From: Deltaproteobacteria bacterium
GTDB lineage: Bacteria; Desulfobacterota; WTBG01; CAIYCZ01; CAIRTM01
Length of the DNA: 45,951 nucleotides
Direction of reading: 5' to 3'
Assembly: GCA_016932595.1 (NCBI GenBank)
Contig: JAFGCP010000305.1
Coordinates: 1-45,951, forward strand
Below the pieces are notes generated by a model, which was not told the DNA's origin, did not search any database, and saw only the letters and a list, made by a program, of their open reading frames with translations. This document shows positions 1 through 8,689 of the stretch, in pieces (the first letter of the stretch is position 1; each line of letters starts with the position of its first letter). The position numbers were made by a program, and so were the translations under genes.

Positions 1-111
1 CGGCACCATAAGCGCCCTGACCCTGTAGCCACGTTTCAAAAGCTCCTGCACCACCAGCCTGCCCGCCCTGCCCGTAGCGCCTGCAACCACTACTGTTTTT
101 TCTTCTGCCAT
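1..111 (-). CDS. NAD(P)-binding Rossmann protein (NmrA/atypical-SDR-like); only the N-terminal 37 codons, gene runs off the left edge
   Basis: Minus-strand ATG at 111..109, with GGGAG 5 nt upstream. Translation is MAEEKTVVVAGATGRAGRLVVQELLKRGYRVRALMVP, which contains a GxxGxxG dinucleotide-binding loop. Confidence 0.6.
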   Translation of the reverse strand, partial: MAEEKTVVVAGATGRAGRLVVQELLKRGYRVRALMVP

Positions 112-250: not shown

Positions 251-1978
251 CTACATTCCCAATTCTTTCCTGAACTCCTCAACTGTCGCTCCGATTACGG
301 TATCACGCGATTTGCCCCGGGCATAATCCTCAGTGCCCGATACGGCGGCCTGACGAAAGGGTGAGGGCACCAGCTCAAGCATGCCTTTTGCCTCGTTATC
401 CCACGCCATGGTGAAGGTAAGGCTTGAAATCGGCACTTCTTCATCATCCTCTGCTGCCGGGGCCGATGCTGAGTCGTCGCCAAACACAGCGGCAAATTTT
501 GCCTTGAACTTGGTGGGCGTAAACTTGTCGGACACTTCCCTGAAAATAGAAAGCGTCACGTTCGTGCCGCGCTCTTTCGCTATCTGCTCGGCCACGGAAT
601 GCAGCTTTTTAAGCGCTGTGGCGCGCACGAAATGCGGTATCATCTCGCCCACCTTTATCATGGCCTGTTCTGCCGCGATATCCCAGGGCACCGAGCCCGT
701 GGAGATGGAGCCCATCATATCACCCTTGGTCTCAAGGAATATGCCCATGTAGACTTCGTTCACCAAGCCCTCGACAAGGTACTTGGCGCCCATAAACCCC
801 ATGAACGGGCAGTTCTCCGAGCTCAAATACCCGATAGTGGGAATATCCGAAAAAATAAAATTTTTGAATCCCTCATCCATGCTCACTTTCTTATCATAGA
901 AGTTGCCATAGATGACCATGGGGCCTTTTTCAACGAACTTGTCGCGCTTCTGCTCAATGGTGGGGCATATGAGAACATCATCGCACAAGGCCTCGATGCG
1001 CTTTGCTGCATCGTGGTTGCTCACCGCCGTCATGACAATGCCAACGCCCACCTCTTTATTCAAAAACTCGCTGATGCCCACGGCATAGGTGTTGGCATTT
1101 TCAAGCGACAAAGCCGCCGTCATCTCGAAGGTTACGGTAAAGACCATATTTGATGAAATGAACTCAAAAGCATTGGCCATGGTCTCTTTAAGATACGGGC
1201 CGGCATCAACCTTGAAAAAGTCTGCAATCTGCTCCACCCATGCCGCAGAATTCCCGAACCCGATGGGGATAATATCCGCCATATACGGAATGCCGAAGCG
1301 CTTCTCCATTTCCTGCGCAACCCGCACGCCGCTGTCATAGGGATAGATACAAAGATTGAGCTCTGCCTGAGCAGCATTTTTTATCTGGCCAATGGTTGCA
1401 CCTGCCGTGTAGACGCAGTTGACCGTAACGCCAATACCTGCGAGCATGCGCGTCAGCTCATACACATCGGCGCGCCAGTTAAAGGTTGAAAATGTCGGGC
1501 CGATGATATTGACCGACCTCGAAACTTTTTTGGCTGTCGGGTCGACAAGATCGAGAATGCGGATAAAAGCTGTCTCCTTGCCCTCCACCAGAGAGCCTCC
1601 GATGGGCGGGTGAATAATAACCGTATCTTTAAAACCAGCCTTCTTGACCACGCCTTCCACATCGTCGCGCGTCACCTCCACCGTGGGAGCGGTGACAATG
1701 AGGATCGCGCCGGGCTTTTTTGCCGCGATCTTCTGAAGTGTCGTCTCCATGCGGTCTTCTGCGCCCTGCATGATATTGGCGTACGAGAGGTTGGTCGAAT
1801 ACAGCTCGCAGGTCCAGTCATTGACCAGGGCATTCACGTGCTGGTTTATGTAACAGCCAGGAGGAGAATGAAAGATGGTGTCAGCGCCCTTGATGCCCAG
1901 GCATGCCCAAAGCGCACCCTCAAAAGCCGAGGGCGTGTGAAGCTCCTGCATCTTAAAATCTTTTTGTGTCTCATTCAT
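251..1978 (-). CDS. Nitrogenase component-1-type oxidoreductase, NifN/NifK/BchB-like subunit, with two C-terminal BchB-type (PCP_red-like) domains
   Basis: ORF 251..1990. The likely start is Met5 at 1978, with GGAGG 5 nt upstream and 1 nt after the upstream gene's TGA. The HSPPGCY motif resembles NifK HGSQGC. The tail carries two copies of the W..eA...L...P.F(V)R...E..A pattern seen at the BchB/ChlB C-terminus (aa ~434-490 and ~526-579), separated by an acidic linker. Confidence 0.85.
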   Translation of the reverse strand: MNETQKDFKMQELHTPSAFEGALWACLGIKGADTIFHSPPGCYINQHVNALVNDWTCELYSTNLSYANIMQGAEDRMETTLQKIAAKKPGAILIVTAPTVEVTRDDVEGVVKKAGFKDTVIIHPPIGGSLVEGKETAFIRILDLVDPTAKKVSRSVNIIGPTFSTFNWRADVYELTRMLAGIGVTVNCVYTAGATIGQIKNAAQAELNLCIYPYDSGVRVAQEMEKRFGIPYMADIIPIGFGNSAAWVEQIADFFKVDAGPYLKETMANAFEFISSNMVFTVTFEMTAALSLENANTYAVGISEFLNKEVGVGIVMTAVSNHDAAKRIEALCDDVLICPTIEQKRDKFVEKGPMVIYGNFYDKKVSMDEGFKNFIFSDIPTIGYLSSENCPFMGFMGAKYLVEGLVNEVYMGIFLETKGDMMGSISTGSVPWDIAAEQAMIKVGEMIPHFVRATALKKLHSVAEQIAKERGTNVTLSIFREVSDKFTPTKFKAKFAAVFGDDSASAPAAEDDEEVPISSLTFTMAWDNEAKGMLELVPSPFRQAAVSGTEDYARGKSRDTVIGATVEEFRKELGM

Positions 1979-1979
1979 G

Positions 1980-3215
1980 TCAGCCTCCATATTTCCGCAT
2001 CAGCCCCTGCCAGGTTTCATAGACGGGCTTGTGCATGTTTTTAAAAAAATGAGCGCCAAGATCAATTGCATAATCGTAGCCGTACTCACAGAGGTACAGC
2101 ATGTTGATGAAGGTGGGAACGAGGCGTGCTACACACTCGGGCTGCGCCTGAAACTCGACCGACACTGCCGTTGGCTTAATCCGGTCGACCACCTCGCCGA
2201 TCATGTCGAAATCCTCTTCTATAAAGGTAACGCCATAGCGCTCCTGCATAAGTTTTTTCTCCTGCTGGTAGAATTTATTCTTCATGGAAGGAACCACAAA
2301 AACCTCAGCCCCGAACTCGGCAAAAATCTTGCCGACAGACACTTCGTTTGCCGGACCCGACACCATAAGCATGCGCACTTTCTCTTTAGCAAACCGTTCA
2401 CGAATCTTTTCAAGCTCCGGCTTCACGCGCTTTTCCTCTTCATTAACCAGATCATGGAGCTTCTGATTCTTCAGCCGGTCAGCAACAGCGCGCAGAAAAT
2501 TTGAGGTGCCCTGAATGCCTGCAGGAATCTCGATAAACTCAACGTCGCCGCCGAAGTTTTCGCTGAGGTGCTTGCAGGTAAGCCAGGGGGTTATGTGAAT
2601 CGGGTAATACTTCTCAGCGCAAACGATTTTACTCATGCTGTCAATATGGGGCGTAGGAAAAACAAAGTACGGAATTTCGGCCTTCTTGAAATACATCTCA
2701 AGTGACGCAAGGTTGCCGGCGTCCTGGCCGGTGCGACCTACGATGCCGATGGAGCCGGGCGCCTTCTCCTGCTTTTCGAAGGTGTCAATGACGGCTACCC
2801 ATGCGGCATCAGAGCCAAGGGGCATGGAGCGCGGATAGTTGAAGCCCGTGAGGCAGGTGCTCACCTTCAGGTCCGGTATTTCCTGCTTGAGCTCGATGAT
2901 CACCCCTTCGATATCCTCACCGATGAGCTGGGGAATGCAGGTATTGATGATGACGATGACTTTAGGGTGATATTTCTCATAGAGGTTCTTGACCTGCAGC
3001 TTCAGTCCAGCCTCGCCGCCGAAAATAACGTCGCTTTTGTTGACAAGGGTACCGGCGGTTACAAGCTGCGCCGGGCGGCATGACATGGAGCCAACCTGGT
3101 TCTGATACGAGCATGGTTGCGGCCCGTGCAGAAGCGGTATGACGCCTTCAATTTTGCCAAGGCTTGCCAGAGCCTGAATCGTGGAGCAGCAGTGCTCATA
3201 ATGTTTGAGGGGCAT
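1980..3215 (-). CDS. Nitrogenase component-1-type oxidoreductase, NifE/NifD/BchN-like subunit
   Basis: ORF 1980..3245. The likely start is Met11 at 3215, with AAGGAGG 8 nt upstream. Three Cys motifs (HCCST, HGPQPC, NTCIPQLIGEDIEG) are spaced about 26 and 58 residues apart, like NifD C62/C88/C154, NifE C37/C62/C124 and the BchN triad. Confidence 0.85.
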   Translation of the reverse strand: MPLKHYEHCCSTIQALASLGKIEGVIPLLHGPQPCSYQNQVGSMSCRPAQLVTAGTLVNKSDVIFGGEAGLKLQVKNLYEKYHPKVIVIINTCIPQLIGEDIEGVIIELKQEIPDLKVSTCLTGFNYPRSMPLGSDAAWVAVIDTFEKQEKAPGSIGIVGRTGQDAGNLASLEMYFKKAEIPYFVFPTPHIDSMSKIVCAEKYYPIHITPWLTCKHLSENFGGDVEFIEIPAGIQGTSNFLRAVADRLKNQKLHDLVNEEEKRVKPELEKIRERFAKEKVRMLMVSGPANEVSVGKIFAEFGAEVFVVPSMKNKFYQQEKKLMQERYGVTFIEEDFDMIGEVVDRIKPTAVSVEFQAQPECVARLVPTFINMLYLCEYGYDYAIDLGAHFFKNMHKPVYETWQGLMRKYGG

Positions 3216-3317
3216 GGGAAAAACCTCCTTTTGAATGACCTGCATCTGTGGGGTTCGCTGTGCGCACCGTTGTATCCTGCGACTGCAGCCAATCCTGAAA
3301 ATTGCAATTTGAAATCT

Positions 3318-4169
3318 TTAATGTTTTCTCCCTGCTGCCTGGGCCCACCAGGCATGGAGCTCTTCAAAGGTGAACGACGCGGGCACGGAAAGCTCCTTGT
3401 TATTCAAAATCGATTCGGCAAGACGGCGGAAGGCCTCGCACTCTGCCGTATCAGGCGCATGCTGGAAAAGAGTGAGTCCCTTGCCCGAGCACTCTTTTAT
3501 TTTTTCGCTGTAGGGGATAAACCCGACAAGATGGCTCCCGAGTTTGCGGGAAAATTCATCCAGGATGGTCTGCTCGTCCTTCAGCTCCCGGCCATTGCCG
3601 ATGATGCCGCCGAGCCTGACGCCCGAACGGGAATTGAAGCGCGACACGGCCTTGCAGATATTGGAGGCGGCAAACAACACCTCGAGCTCGCCGCTGCTCA
3701 CGATATAGACCTCGTCGGCATGGCCTTCGCGGATGGGCATGGAGAAACCGCCGCACACCACGTCGCCCAGCACGTCGTAGAGAACCACATCGAGTTTCAG
3801 AACCTCCATCACGTTGAGATGCTTGAGCGCCTCTATGGCCTCCACCACCCCCTTGCCCCCGCAGCCAAGCCCGGGGTCAGGCCCGCCGCTTTCCGCGCAG
3901 AAAATCTTTCCGGAGCAGGTATCGTTAAGCGGGCTTTCAAACACCACCTCGTCCATGGCAAGTGATTTCACCTCAAAGTTCTTCTTCCGCAAAATCCCCA
4001 GCACTGTCTGGGGCATTTTGCCTTTCAGCAGCAGACGCGTGCTGTCATGCTTGGGATCGCAACCCACATGCAGCACCCGCAGACCTTTGGCCGCAAGGGC
4101 AAATGTTATATGGGATGACACCATGGACTTTCCGATACCGCCCTTACCGTAAATAGCTATCTGGCGCAT
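3318..4169 (-). CDS. NifH/BchL-family Fe-protein-like ATPase, paralog 1
   Basis: Walker A is YGKGGIGKS and switch I is GCDPKHDST. The 4Fe-4S Cys motifs are GLGCGGKG and DVLGDVVCGGFSMPIREG. AGAGG lies 6 nt upstream of the ATG. Confidence 0.95.
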   Translation of the reverse strand: MRQIAIYGKGGIGKSMVSSHITFALAAKGLRVLHVGCDPKHDSTRLLLKGKMPQTVLGILRKKNFEVKSLAMDEVVFESPLNDTCSGKIFCAESGGPDPGLGCGGKGVVEAIEALKHLNVMEVLKLDVVLYDVLGDVVCGGFSMPIREGHADEVYIVSSGELEVLFAASNICKAVSRFNSRSGVRLGGIIGNGRELKDEQTILDEFSRKLGSHLVGFIPYSEKIKECSGKGLTLFQHAPDTAECEAFRRLAESILNNKELSVPASFTFEELHAWWAQAAGRKH

Positions 4170-6967: not shown

Positions 6968-8689
6968 TTGATGAAACAGGCGCACAACCTGTTTCTACTC
7001 TTCAATCAAAACAACACTCCTTCGAAACATATGAAAATAATCTACGCATCCGATATTCATGAGTCTTATAAAAACCTGCAAAAACTCTTTCGTATGACAG
7101 AGGCCGACCTCTATATAATCGCAGGAGACCTCCTTTACAGCGCCTTCCCTTCATGGGAACTTGCCGAACGCTTCACTGAGATGCAGCAACGCGTCTATTC
7201 CTGGGGCTTAAGCCGCGGCATAAAGGGAACACGCTTTACTATGGCCCGGCATATGCTTGAAACGCCGGAGACTCCTTTAATTGAACAGGCCCTCGCAAAA
7301 GAATTTCTTCGCATCACCGATCTTGCACAAGCAAGCATGCTTCAAAAATACGGCCGCATGGCAAAAATTTTTACCGCATCCGGCAAGACCGATATAATAA
7401 CCATCCCCGGCAACTACGATATGGATCTTAAAGAAACCGCCCTCGCATCATGGAACCTGCATCTGCAAACACGGATCATAAACGGGATTACCTTCGCCGG
7501 CTACGGTGGATCACCGGTATTCACGCCCGGCATACCCGACAACCTTCGGATTACCTACAATGAACTCAGGCAGAACGGGCGGCTCATATCTGAACCCTAT
7601 GAATTTTTCACAAAAACCAGCCCTGATGTTATCCTGCTGCACCAGCCTGCCTACGGTTACCTGGATACAATTGCCACCTACGGCAGCATCGGCAGTATTG
7701 GCGTTCGAGATTTTATCGACCACAGCAGCGTGCGCCTCGTGCTCAGCGGCCATATGCATGAAGACTGGGGTGCGATTTTCAAGCAGGGTAAAGTTTTCTT
7801 GAACCCTTCAAATTTCGGCCGCGTCGTAGAAATTCACCGTATTAAAAAAGGCGGCTACTTTACCGAATTTACCATGGACGGCACTACCTTCACAGGGGGC
7901 ATGCTGCGCCAGATCGACGGCGGAAAGGCATACGATATTGAGCAGTGCATTATGCGTGACGACAAATTCCGGCTGCTGGTGATAGACCTCAAGCGATACC
8001 GCTATCTCTCAAACATAAAAAAACGCCAGAAGCATATACGCGCCATACGCCTGTTTAATGCGCTGCGTGGGTTCTTTCAGAAACATGAAACCGAGGCAAC
8101 CCGCACACGCATAGAAGCACTAAAGGAATTCTGCCGCAAACTTCATAAGGAAGGCCATGAGATAGCATTCCACCTGCTTGGTTCTCTTAATTTCGGCATG
8201 GCGACCGACACATCGGATCTTGACACCGTGCTCTACTTCCGCGACCCGGCGATTACCGTTCCCGATGATGTCTCCTACCCTGTGCCCGACTACGTACGCT
8301 CACGCCTGGGAGAGCTGAAAGACAGCGGCATTGATCTTTCCATCTGCGACTGCTTAAATCTTGCGCGCATCGAGGAAGCGATCATCGCGCAGGATGTGGA
8401 CAACACGCTTCTGCAGCGCTTTATTTTTTATTATGGCACCTGCCGCTGCGTAAACGCGGAGCCCATCAAGGAGGTGGAAAACCTGCTCACCAACATGCAG
8501 CCGTTCCGCTTTGAGGTTGAAGGAGAGCTGGCCGAGGTCTTCCGCATGATGATCAGCAGCTTTCGCCACTCCTTCTCATTCAAAAAATACCAGATGCGCC
8601 TGCATGAAAAAGGCCTGACCGTGCCGCCATACATTGAAGAAAAAATCTGGGAGTATCTTGAATACCGGGATGAAAAGCAACAAAAATAA
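6968..8689 (+). CDS. Fusion protein: calcineurin-like metallophosphoesterase (N-terminal) plus Pol-beta-superfamily nucleotidyltransferase (C-terminal)
   Basis: The phosphoesterase motifs are SDIH, AGDLL, PGNYD, LLHQP and SGHMH. The nucleotidyltransferase motif is LLGSLNFGMATDTSDLDTVLY (G[SG]...DxD). The biological start may be the ATG at 7031 (MKIIYASDIH). Neither candidate start has an obvious Shine-Dalgarno site. Confidence 0.8.
   Translation: MMKQAHNLFLLFNQNNTPSKHMKIIYASDIHESYKNLQKLFRMTEADLYIIAGDLLYSAFPSWELAERFTEMQQRVYSWGLSRGIKGTRFTMARHMLETPETPLIEQALAKEFLRITDLAQASMLQKYGRMAKIFTASGKTDIITIPGNYDMDLKETALASWNLHLQTRIINGITFAGYGGSPVFTPGIPDNLRITYNELRQNGRLISEPYEFFTKTSPDVILLHQPAYGYLDTIATYGSIGSIGVRDFIDHSSVRLVLSGHMHEDWGAIFKQGKVFLNPSNFGRVVEIHRIKKGGYFTEFTMDGTTFTGGMLRQIDGGKAYDIEQCIMRDDKFRLLVIDLKRYRYLSNIKKRQKHIRAIRLFNALRGFFQKHETEATRTRIEALKEFCRKLHKEGHEIAFHLLGSLNFGMATDTSDLDTVLYFRDPAITVPDDVSYPVPDYVRSRLGELKDSGIDLSICDCLNLARIEEAIIAQDVDNTLLQRFIFYYGTCRCVNAEPIKEVENLLTNMQPFRFEVEGELAEVFRMMISSFRHSFSFKKYQMRLHEKGLTVPPYIEEKIWEYLEYRDEKQQK

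Follow-up and report, generated by a model that had tools for sequence, protein, structure and literature searches.

The locus and its genes

The window analysed here is a 45,951-nucleotide stretch of DNA, the start of contig C400 (JAFGCP010000305.1) of a 76%-complete sediment metagenome-assembled genome (MAG) labelled G000. It carries an operon on the minus strand encoding, in order, a MarR-family regulator, NifH-like protein 1, NifH-like protein 2, and the D-like and B-like catalytic subunits of a nitrogenase-like enzyme. These two subunits, which we read as the catalytic pair of an uncharacterised reductase that is probably COR/DPOR-like, are the subject of this work. The genes are as follows.

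251..1990, minus strand: B-like (BchB/BchZ-type) catalytic subunit, 579 amino acids (aa); Pfam Oxidored_nitro and PCP_red
1980..3245, minus strand: D-like (BchN/NifE-type) catalytic subunit, longest open reading frame (ORF), 421 aa; Pfam Oxidored_nitro
1980..3215, minus strand: D-like subunit from its probable start at ATG 3215, 411 aa; Shine-Dalgarno motif
3318..4169, minus strand: NifH-like ATPase copy 2, 283 aa; Fer4_NifH, 308 bits
4342..5181, minus strand: NifH-like ATPase copy 1, 279 aa; Fer4_NifH, 286 bits
5193..5672, minus strand: MarR-family regulator at the operon head; Pfam MarR
1..111, minus strand: NmrA/NAD_binding_10-type reductase gene, first 37 codons, cut by the contig end

The 579-aa and 421-aa ORFs are as described in the initial annotation, which had been made from the DNA letters without database searches. 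The B-like subunit is laid out as an Oxidored_nitro core (residues 21-413), a long helix (398-422), a first tail, an acidic linker and a second tail. The true start of the D-like subunit is probably Met11 of the ORF, giving a protein of 411 aa, because AAGGAGG lies 7 nt upstream of the ATG at 3215 and the homologues begin MPLK. Residues of the D-like subunit are numbered here by the 421-aa ORF, so that the true number is the ORF number minus 10. This start, like Cys56, His217 and the Cys19/Cys46 covariation described below, goes beyond the initial annotation.

The two NifH-like proteins are 51.8% identical to each other, and each is 43-45% identical to NifH. Their tandem gene pair is kept across the loci that encode the D-like/B-like enzyme, and 18 loci have a MarR gene upstream of H-H-D-B. 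A sigma-54-like motif in the 140 nt that follow the B gene was examined by eye and lacks the GG-N10-GC spacing. Unrelated to the operon, a 573-aa ORF at 6968-8689 on the plus strand has a calcineurin-like phosphoesterase domain and a weak nucleotidyltransferase-like match.

Ligand columns of the predicted interface cluster

The residues of interest are encoded at the following positions.

3186..3191, minus strand: Cys19-Cys20 codons (motif HCC), D-like, Cys20 being the predicted first alpha-type ligand
3111..3113, minus strand: Cys45 codon (motif HGPQPC), D-like, predicted second alpha-type ligand
2937..2939, minus strand: Cys103 codon (motif NTCIPQLIGEDIEG), D-like, predicted third alpha-type ligand
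3072..3080, minus strand: Cys56-Arg57-Pro58 codons, D-like
2595..2597, minus strand: His217 codon, D-like
1853..1855, minus strand: Cys46 codon (motif HSPPGC), B-like, predicted fourth, trans-subunit [4Fe-4S] ligand
1685..1687, minus strand: Pro102 codon (motif TAPTVEV), B-like, at the NifK Cys153 / BchB Cys95 position

Ligand columns were taken from a MAFFT L-INS-i alignment of the D-like and B-like homologues with reference proteins from plasmid genes, namely BchX/Y/Z and BchL/N/B of Sulfitobacter guttiformis, NifE/N of Cupriavidus taiwanensis and NifH/D/K/E of Rhizobium leguminosarum. Cys20, Cys45 and Cys103 of the D-like subunit, each present in 28/28 D-like sequences, fall on NifD Cys62, Cys88 and Cys154, respectively. 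These columns also hold the first ligand Cys, the Cys88-equivalent Cys and the third ligand Cys of BchN, BchY and NifE. In HMMER alignments with methylthio-alkane reductase, the same three residues fall on MarD Cys66, Cys91 and Cys158, in the ligand numbering of the solved enzyme (PMC12552129). On the B-like side, Cys46 shares its column with BchB Asp36, the BchZ Cys, the NifN Cys and NifK Cys95, an assignment obtained with MAFFT and with PDB phmmer and profile alignments. The NifK Cys70 column holds Ser21, and that of NifK Cys153 and BchB Cys95 holds Pro102, a Pro in 40/40 sequences. Cys is found at four of the six P-cluster positions, that is, at all three on the D side and only at the Cys95 column on the B side. 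The initial annotation had made these assignments by eye, Cys19/20, Cys45 and Cys103 as alpha-type ligands, Cys46 at the NifK Cys95 position, Pro at that of Cys153 and no evident equivalent of Cys70, and the computed alignment agrees with them.

In COR, the [4Fe-4S] cluster was assigned by mutagenesis and electron paramagnetic resonance to three BchY Cys and the BchZ Cys at the BchB Asp position (PMC13474568). As aligned, the predicted D/B ligand columns are exactly this pattern of three Cys plus one, and the NifE/NifN columns are likewise.

The column of NifD His442, a FeMo-co ligand, holds Ile380 in the D-like subunit. The NifB model TIGR01290 has no match that reaches its cut-off in G000 (76% complete) or in four relatives, namely G001 (a complete chromosome) and G003-G005. 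The lack of NifB, the four of six P-cluster Cys and the Ile in the His442 column together exclude N2 reduction on sequence grounds, and the enzyme is predicted not to fix N2, as had been claimed at the outset.

His217 of the D-like subunit lies in the NifD Cys275 / NifE Cys column and is His in 25/28 and Gln in 3/28 sequences; in HMMER alignments to MarD, it stands two residues after Cys270. We read His217 as a cavity residue shared with the tetrapyrrole reductases and not as a cofactor ligand, because BchY has His and BchN has Gln in this column and NifB is absent. The initial annotation had taken a further conserved Cys or His at a P-cluster or FeMo-co ligand position as counting against it, and His217 in the NifD Cys275 column is in part such a case. 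The column of the BchB proton donor Asp274 holds Phe or Thr in the B-like homologues, in a region where the alignment is weak.

The Cys56-Arg57-Pro58 motif is invariant in 28/28 D-like sequences. Its Cys has no Cys counterpart in the reference proteins, which have Ile/Phe, Tyr or Ser in the column, and its loop (residues 44-73) is modelled with pLDDT <50 by AlphaFold2 (AF2). Of 120 homologues of the B-like subunit, 108 have Cys at position 46, all the long forms among them, and 11 have Tyr. The family-specific Cys19 of the D-like subunit is Cys in 23/28 sequences and Gly in five loci, those whose B subunit has Tyr46, giving 21 Cys/Cys pairs, five Gly/Tyr pairs and no mixed ones. The Gly/Tyr pairs come from gammaproteobacterial MAGs, in which the B subunit is short (508-527 aa) and has a single tail. 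Since this subclade is nested within the double-tail clade (96-100 SH-aLRT in both subunit trees), Cys19, Cys46 and tail 2 were lost jointly. The co-loss is suggestive and not statistical, because it amounts to a single evolutionary event.

Two more Cys of the B-like subunit are conserved and have no counterpart in BchB, BchZ, NifN or NifK. Cys214 (LNLCxYP; window 1349-1351, minus strand) is present in 40/40 sequences and also in the far relatives P0122 and P0123, and Cys336 (window 983-985, minus strand) in 37/40.

The two PCP_red tails

The C-terminal part of the B-like subunit is divided as follows.

482..694, minus strand: tail 1, residues 433-503, long BchZ-type PCP_red form, four predicted helices
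419..481, minus strand: acidic low-complexity linker, residues 504-524, includes DDSASAPAAEDDEE
254..418, minus strand: tail 2, residues 525-579, compact PCP_red subtype, three predicted helices

A Pfam scan of the full protein finds two PCP_red stretches, scoring 38.8 bits jointly, so the double match to this profile that had been expected was obtained. With a PCP_red cut-off of 32.5 bits, each tail alone is under the threshold (tail 1, 23.4 bits, E 6e-5; tail 2, 24.2 bits, E 3e-5), and the tails together reach 43.7 bits. Profile-profile comparison of tail 1 with tail 2 by hhalign gives a probability of 91.9% and E 7e-7 over 45 columns, with two 4-residue gaps; compared directly as a pair of sequences, they show little similarity, with 10-11 of 500-1000 shuffles scoring as high. 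No gap is needed to align tail 1 with the BchZ tail (z 6.9, 0/1000 shuffles), and its alignment with the BchB tail (z 4.3) needs two 4-residue gaps, the same as those between tails 1 and 2. Tail 1 is therefore of the long form seen in BchZ, and we read it as the native tail. Tail 2 compared with the BchB and BchZ tails as single sequences is not significant (z about 1.9), its homology being seen only with profiles.

Tail 1 is present in 120/120 homologues. Tail 2 is present in 106/108 of the Cys46 type and in 0/11 of the Tyr46 type; the two Cys46-type homologues without it are both shorter than 555 aa, and one is annotated as partial. The linker differs in length among homologues and is modelled with pLDDT <50 at residues 506-516. 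BchB, BchZ and the nearest outgroups P0122 and P0123 (42% and 37% identical) have a single tail.

Searched against the same genome, a hidden Markov model (HMM) of tail 2 matches the C-terminus of an MFS transporter (52.6 bits) and the C-terminus of a DUF169 protein (50.7 bits), and an HMM of tail 1 matches the B-like protein alone. Pfam agrees, with MFS_1+PCP_red and DUF169+PCP_red architectures, and also places PCP_red N-terminally on NIR_SIR/4Fe-4S proteins. This distribution argues that tail 2 is a portable module that was added onto a protein already having its native tail, and not a simple tandem copy. The initial annotation had described two copies of the BchB C-terminal module; their PCP_red character and mutual homology stand, and their equivalence does not, tail 2 belonging to a distinct, portable subtype. 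The PCP_red fusions of G000 are located at C54:6414-7973 (+), C253:1817-2794 (-), C333:2773-3651 (+) and C296:1-554 (-), and among them the MFS-transporter and DUF169 modules are of the tail 2 subtype.

The initial annotation has this module capping the substrate pocket of DPOR, in which the in-trans contact to protochlorophyllide (Pchlide) is made, according to cryo-electron microscopy, by helix 398-420 (PMC12022308). This helix precedes the PCP_red part and corresponds to helix 398-422 of our model, ahead of the tails, and the solved Rhodobacter BchB chains end at residue 419-430. Given that a transporter and a DUF169 protein carry the same kind of module, tail 2 probably binds a shared pigment or docks a shared partner for substrate hand-over and does not act as a second lid. 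A literature search on PF08369/PCP_red returned nothing relevant.

Fold, family and distribution

The AF2 models of the B-like and D-like subunits have mean pLDDT values of 83.4 and 80.9. Aligned with VIA-align, residues 11-427 of the B-like model superpose on BchB 1-420 with Z 42.7 and a root-mean-square deviation of 2.6 Å over 405 residues; NifN, MarK and NifK give Z 33-36. The D-like model is nearest BchN/ChlN (Z 30-31.4), and NifE and MarD are at about 28. In Foldseek, BchN was not in the top 50 for the D-like model, and re-ranking with VIA-align put BchN/ChlN first; the Foldseek order was not relied upon. In the trees, BchZ and the B-like family share a starred clade (98), and the D-like family groups with BchN+BchY at weak support (68).

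Curated NCBIfam models are all far under their cut-offs for both subunits and for the Fe proteins. The B-like subunit scores 158.9 bits with TIGR01278 (BchB; cut-off 490.35) and 117.5 with TIGR02014 (BchZ; cut-off 529). The D-like subunit scores 54.7 bits with TIGR01279 (BchN; cut-off 419.95) and 82.5 with TIGR01283 (NifE; cut-off 505.1), its best NCBIfam match. The CfbD model TIGR03282 gives 40.5 and 18.5 bits against 268.4, and the CfbC model 296 against 402 bits. A CfbCD role was considered and rejected, as there are two different catalytic subunits here, as opposed to the homomeric CfbD, and the CfbC and CfbD models are under their cut-offs.

The clade is sharply delimited. Among 1.84 billion representative proteins, 16 representatives fall under 1e-30, and the ten nearest outgroup representatives, when tested against NCBIfam, were all (10/10) themselves uncharacterised nitrogenase-like proteins. 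We found 36 related loci in Thermodesulfobacteriota, Spirochaetota and gammaproteobacterial MAGs, with the core MarR-H-H-D-B order kept. Many of the genomes have one or two extra D-B pairs without Fe-protein genes, and the arrangement suggests that one Fe-protein reductase serves several D-B components; compare BchL and BchX, which serve DPOR and COR separately. The genomes of loci L017, L019, L020, L022, L023 and L031 have up to three D-B pairs and one tandem Fe-protein pair. No other Oxidored_nitro genes were found in G000, G001 or G002, G000 holding only one D-B pair, and no bch or photosynthesis genes were found in the genomes examined. The enzyme is the sole nitrogenase-like system of its genomes and is common in uncultured, sulfate-reducer-like sediment bacteria.

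Gene neighbourhood and bilin reductases

The 37 codons of the NmrA-like gene that lie in the window match, at 74% identity, the N-terminal part of the gene after B in locus L008, where B, the NmrA-like gene and a ferredoxin-dependent bilin reductase (FDBR) gene are contiguous. In G000, NmrA-like C-termini are found on contigs C337 and C295, each followed by a true FDBR gene whose product scores 53 bits with Fe_bilin_red (53-54 bits over G000 and L008) and has HY2 and PUBS as PDB matches. Contig C337 shares synteny with the genes after B in L003, the 93% orthologue. The NmrA-like gene exists in two near-identical copies, with N-termini on C400 and C399 and C-termini plus FDBR on C337 and C295. 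On C399, the second copy comes after a DUF1302/DUF1329/BNR/MMPL module. The NmrA/NAD_binding_10 reductase family also includes BLVRB and the anaerobilin reductase ChuY. In L003 and L004, a CbiX/ferrochelatase-like gene is found at this place downstream of B, and paralogous D-B pairs adjoin genes for a CbiX-like chelatase, a B12-radical-SAM protein, a DUF169 protein and an FDBR.

At the genome level, G000 has 18 FDBR genes over the Pfam cut-off. FDBR genes are found in 32/42 genomes of the class, 5-19 in each, and in 21/22 of the class genomes that have the enzyme; among 14 control genomes, only Synechococcus has them. The link between FDBR and the enzyme is real at this level; it is lineage-bound and not exclusive, because 11 related genomes without the enzyme also have FDBR. 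The FDBR contigs of G000 are C454, C191, C141, C337, C5, C295, C258 and C148, and further C341, C286, C313, C234, C420, C128, C39 and C349. Two of these, C258 and C341, carry a repeated module of two FDBR-like genes, a YCF48-like BNR protein and an MMPL/RND protein, along with DUF1302, DUF1329, an alpha/beta hydrolase and a 485-aa ferrochelatase-like protein. Elsewhere in G000, contig C15 (about 6.7-15.2 kb) has six tandem paralogues of an FAD-dependent oxidoreductase that resemble one found beside paralogous D-B pairs in L017, L019 and L037. A literature search found no paper that links a bilin reductase with a nitrogenase-like enzyme.

The proposed enzyme and its alternatives

We propose, with a probability of roughly 60%, that the two subunits are the catalytic pair of an uncharacterised, COR/DPOR-like nitrogenase-like reductase that works as follows. 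Two unequal NifH-like proteins would deliver electrons in an ATP-dependent manner to one [4Fe-4S] cluster at the D/B interface, held by Cys20, Cys45 and Cys103 of the D-like and Cys46 of the B-like subunit in an all-Cys 3+1 arrangement. From there, electrons would pass to an organic substrate in the cavity between the subunits, with no P-cluster or FeMo-co-type cofactor involved. The substrate is most likely a tetrapyrrole or a tetrapyrrole-derived product. In the D-like subunit, His217 and the Cys56-Arg57-Pro58 motif may be cavity residues that deliver protons, bind a carboxylate or contact a metal. Tail 1 would be the ancestral BchZ/BchB-type C-terminal module and tail 2 a later-acquired, portable PCP_red module. 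The homology, ligand columns, conservation, NifB absence, module distribution and gene neighbourhood are observed; the cluster type, the substrate class and the roles of the tails are predictions. The pigment-handling neighbour genes and the portable tail point to a tetrapyrrole as the probable substrate.

Several observations weigh against this proposal. The ligand loops have pLDDT <50 in both AF2 models. Tyr replaces Cys46 in an apparently intact subclade and Cys56 is invariant, so that the fourth ligand could differ, and the covariation of Cys19 together with the invariant Cys56 leaves room for a ligand set beyond the plain 3+1. The NifH-like proteins score nearer NifH/CfbC than BchL/BchX. 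As to the neighbourhood, the join of C400 to C337 is inferred from synteny and not from sequence, the contig breaking in a duplicated gene; the DUF1302/DUF1329/BNR/MMPL outer-membrane genes lie directly downstream of B in five loci; FDBR genes are also found in the 11 class genomes without the enzyme; and MarR control together with the outer-membrane genes would also fit a hydrophobic substrate that is not a tetrapyrrole.

The interface cluster might not be a plain 3+1 cubane if Cys19 and/or Cys56 take part, whether Cys56 is the fourth ligand, with all four coming from the D-like subunit, or Cys19 and Cys46 exchange in a redox-dependent way, or the cluster has five or six Cys. We think this unlikely. 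It would account for Cys56 being kept in 28/28 sequences while Cys46 is Tyr in 11/120, for the joint loss of Cys19 and Cys46 (21 Cys/Cys, 5 Gly/Tyr, 0 mixed) and for the total of six Cys that are conserved across both N-terminal regions, and the Cys45-Cys56 loop is modelled at low confidence. Against it, neither Cys19 nor Cys56 has a counterpart among the ligand positions of NifD/E and BchN/Y; Cys56 would lie about 13 residues past NifD Cys88 by alignment, toward the active-site cavity; NifB and other cofactor-assembly genes are absent; and the covariation is one evolutionary event in the tree. The all-Cys 3+1 [4Fe-4S] cluster predicted in the initial annotation keeps the backing of the COR and NifEN ligand columns, and Cys56 and the covarying Cys19 leave other sets possible. 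We think it equally unlikely that the BchB lid was duplicated in tandem and that both copies cover the substrate pocket in an equivalent way. Both modules do match PCP_red, are mutually homologous and are kept in 106 long homologues. However, they differ by two 4-residue indels, the same difference as between the BchZ-type and BchB-type tails; the HMM of tail 2 finds the MFS and DUF169 modules and that of tail 1 only itself; P0122, P0123, BchB and BchZ have one tail each; and the solved BchB chains stop at 419-430, with the Pchlide contact helix 398-420 lying before PCP_red.

It seems rather improbable that the substrate is not a tetrapyrrole but some different hard-to-reduce compound, for instance an organosulfur one like those of Mar and Isr or an imported aromatic or hydrophobic one sensed by MarR. 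The MarR-type control, the DUF1302/DUF1329/BNR/MMPL genes right after B in five loci, Fe proteins that score like NifH/CfbC and not BchL/BchX, and the apparent lack of conservation, in a weakly aligned region, of the BchB proton donor Asp274 would suit such a compound. But the DPOR subunits are the nearest structural matches of both catalytic subunits, two PCP_red modules are present, the adjacent genes encode FDBR, a BLVRB/ChuY-type NAD(P)H reductase and CbiX-like chelatases, no sulfur-metabolism neighbours are present, and, unlike in Mar, there is no P-cluster or L-cluster ligand set. We can hardly credit an N2-fixing nitrogenase or a NifEN-type cofactor maturase: NifE is the best NCBIfam match of the D-like subunit (82.5 bits) and the 3+1 Cys pattern is that of NifEN, but this score is far below the 505-bit cut-off, NifB, NifD and NifK genes are missing from these genomes, the His442 column holds Ile and the Cys275 column His, and the B subunit is BchB-like with PCP_red tails.

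It is tempting to carry the COR/DPOR-like proposal further, although we hold the extension to be doubtful. The enzyme might be the ATP-driven entry step of an oxygen-free route for the uptake and dismantling or salvage of environmental tetrapyrroles, that is, of chlorophyll- and haem-derived sediment pigments. Electrons would be forced into a stable macrocycle, comparable to the action of benzoyl-CoA reductase on benzene rings. Processing of what results would fall to the many FDBR paralogues and the BLVRB/ChuY-type reductase, together with chelatase-like proteins, alpha/beta hydrolases and outer-membrane uptake modules, and the portable PCP_red module, present on an importer, a DUF169 protein and the reductase, would pass the pigment along.

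Significance

Reactions are known for only a few nitrogenase-like enzymes, namely DPOR, COR, CfbCD, Mar and Isr, and a 2026 review names the uncharacterised nitrogenase-like clades as the main open problem of the field. The clade described here offers a predicted COR-type all-Cys cluster of which nature provides a Cys-to-Tyr variant, a portable pigment-reductase module that is additional to the native one and also occurs on a transporter, and a physical link to bilin reductases in non-photosynthetic organisms living without oxygen. If the substrate is an external tetrapyrrole, the enzyme would bear on chlorophyll and haem turnover in anoxic sediments, a process for which we know of no established pathway.

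Comparison with known systems

Clusters of pre-PcyA/FDBR genes have been described in non-photosynthetic bacteria, where FDBR occurs in heterotrophs and sometimes beside a B12-binding protein (PMC10151467). The clusters of Rockwell et al. 2023 (PMC10151467) differ from the present loci in having genes for haem oxygenase, V4R and globin (BBAG); none of them contains a nitrogenase-like enzyme, which that paper mentions 0 times.

Among nitrogenase-like (NFL) enzymes, Group VI is defined by at most four of six P-cluster Cys, no FeMo-co ligands and no NifB (PMC13474568). All three features are found here, and the enzyme may belong with Group VI (NflHDK of Elusimicrobia/Myxococcales; Meheust et al. 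2020). Group VI is likewise uncharacterised, has had a tetrapyrrole role proposed from context, and is like the present family in the B12-radical-SAM genes near some loci. It differs in its hosts, which here are Thermodesulfobacteriota and gammaproteobacterial MAGs, and the listed Group VI genomes are not among the related loci. We found no published record, for Group VI, of NifH genes in tandem, of PCP_red modules as tails or of neighbouring FDBR genes.

NifEN resembles the enzyme in the all-Cys 3+1 ligand pattern of its [4Fe-4S] cluster and in that NifE is the best HMM match of the D-like subunit. It is unlike it in context, as there is here no NifB, no nitrogenase to serve and no nif genes nearby, in the Cys of the NifE cofactor site, whose column holds His217, and in the partner subunit, which is BchB-like and not NifN-like.

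DPOR (BchL-BchNB / ChlL-ChlNB, also NFL Group V) is the best structural match of both subunits (Z 42.7 for BchB, 31.4 for BchN). It shares the three Cys ligands of the N-type subunit and the PCP_red C-terminal tail of the B-type subunit. However, BchB Asp36, which in DPOR is the fourth cluster ligand beside three Cys, is replaced by Cys46 and BchB Cys95 by Pro, and identity is only 19-22%.

COR (BchX-BchYZ, NFL Group V) differs from the enzyme in having one Fe-protein gene, where two different ones are found here, and lacks the second PCP_red module and the extra conserved Cys19, Cys56 and His217 of the D-like and Cys214 of the B-like subunit. The BchZ model reaches 117.5 of the 529 bits required, and the genomes have no bch or photosynthesis genes. 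The shared features are these: the predicted ligands are three Cys of the Y/D subunit and, in the column of the BchB Asp, one Cys of the Z/B subunit, the best tblastn match of the B-like subunit among plasmids is BchZ (23-25% identity over 80% of the query, including the tail), tail 1 is gapless to the BchZ tail, and BchZ lies in the same starred clade as the B-like family.

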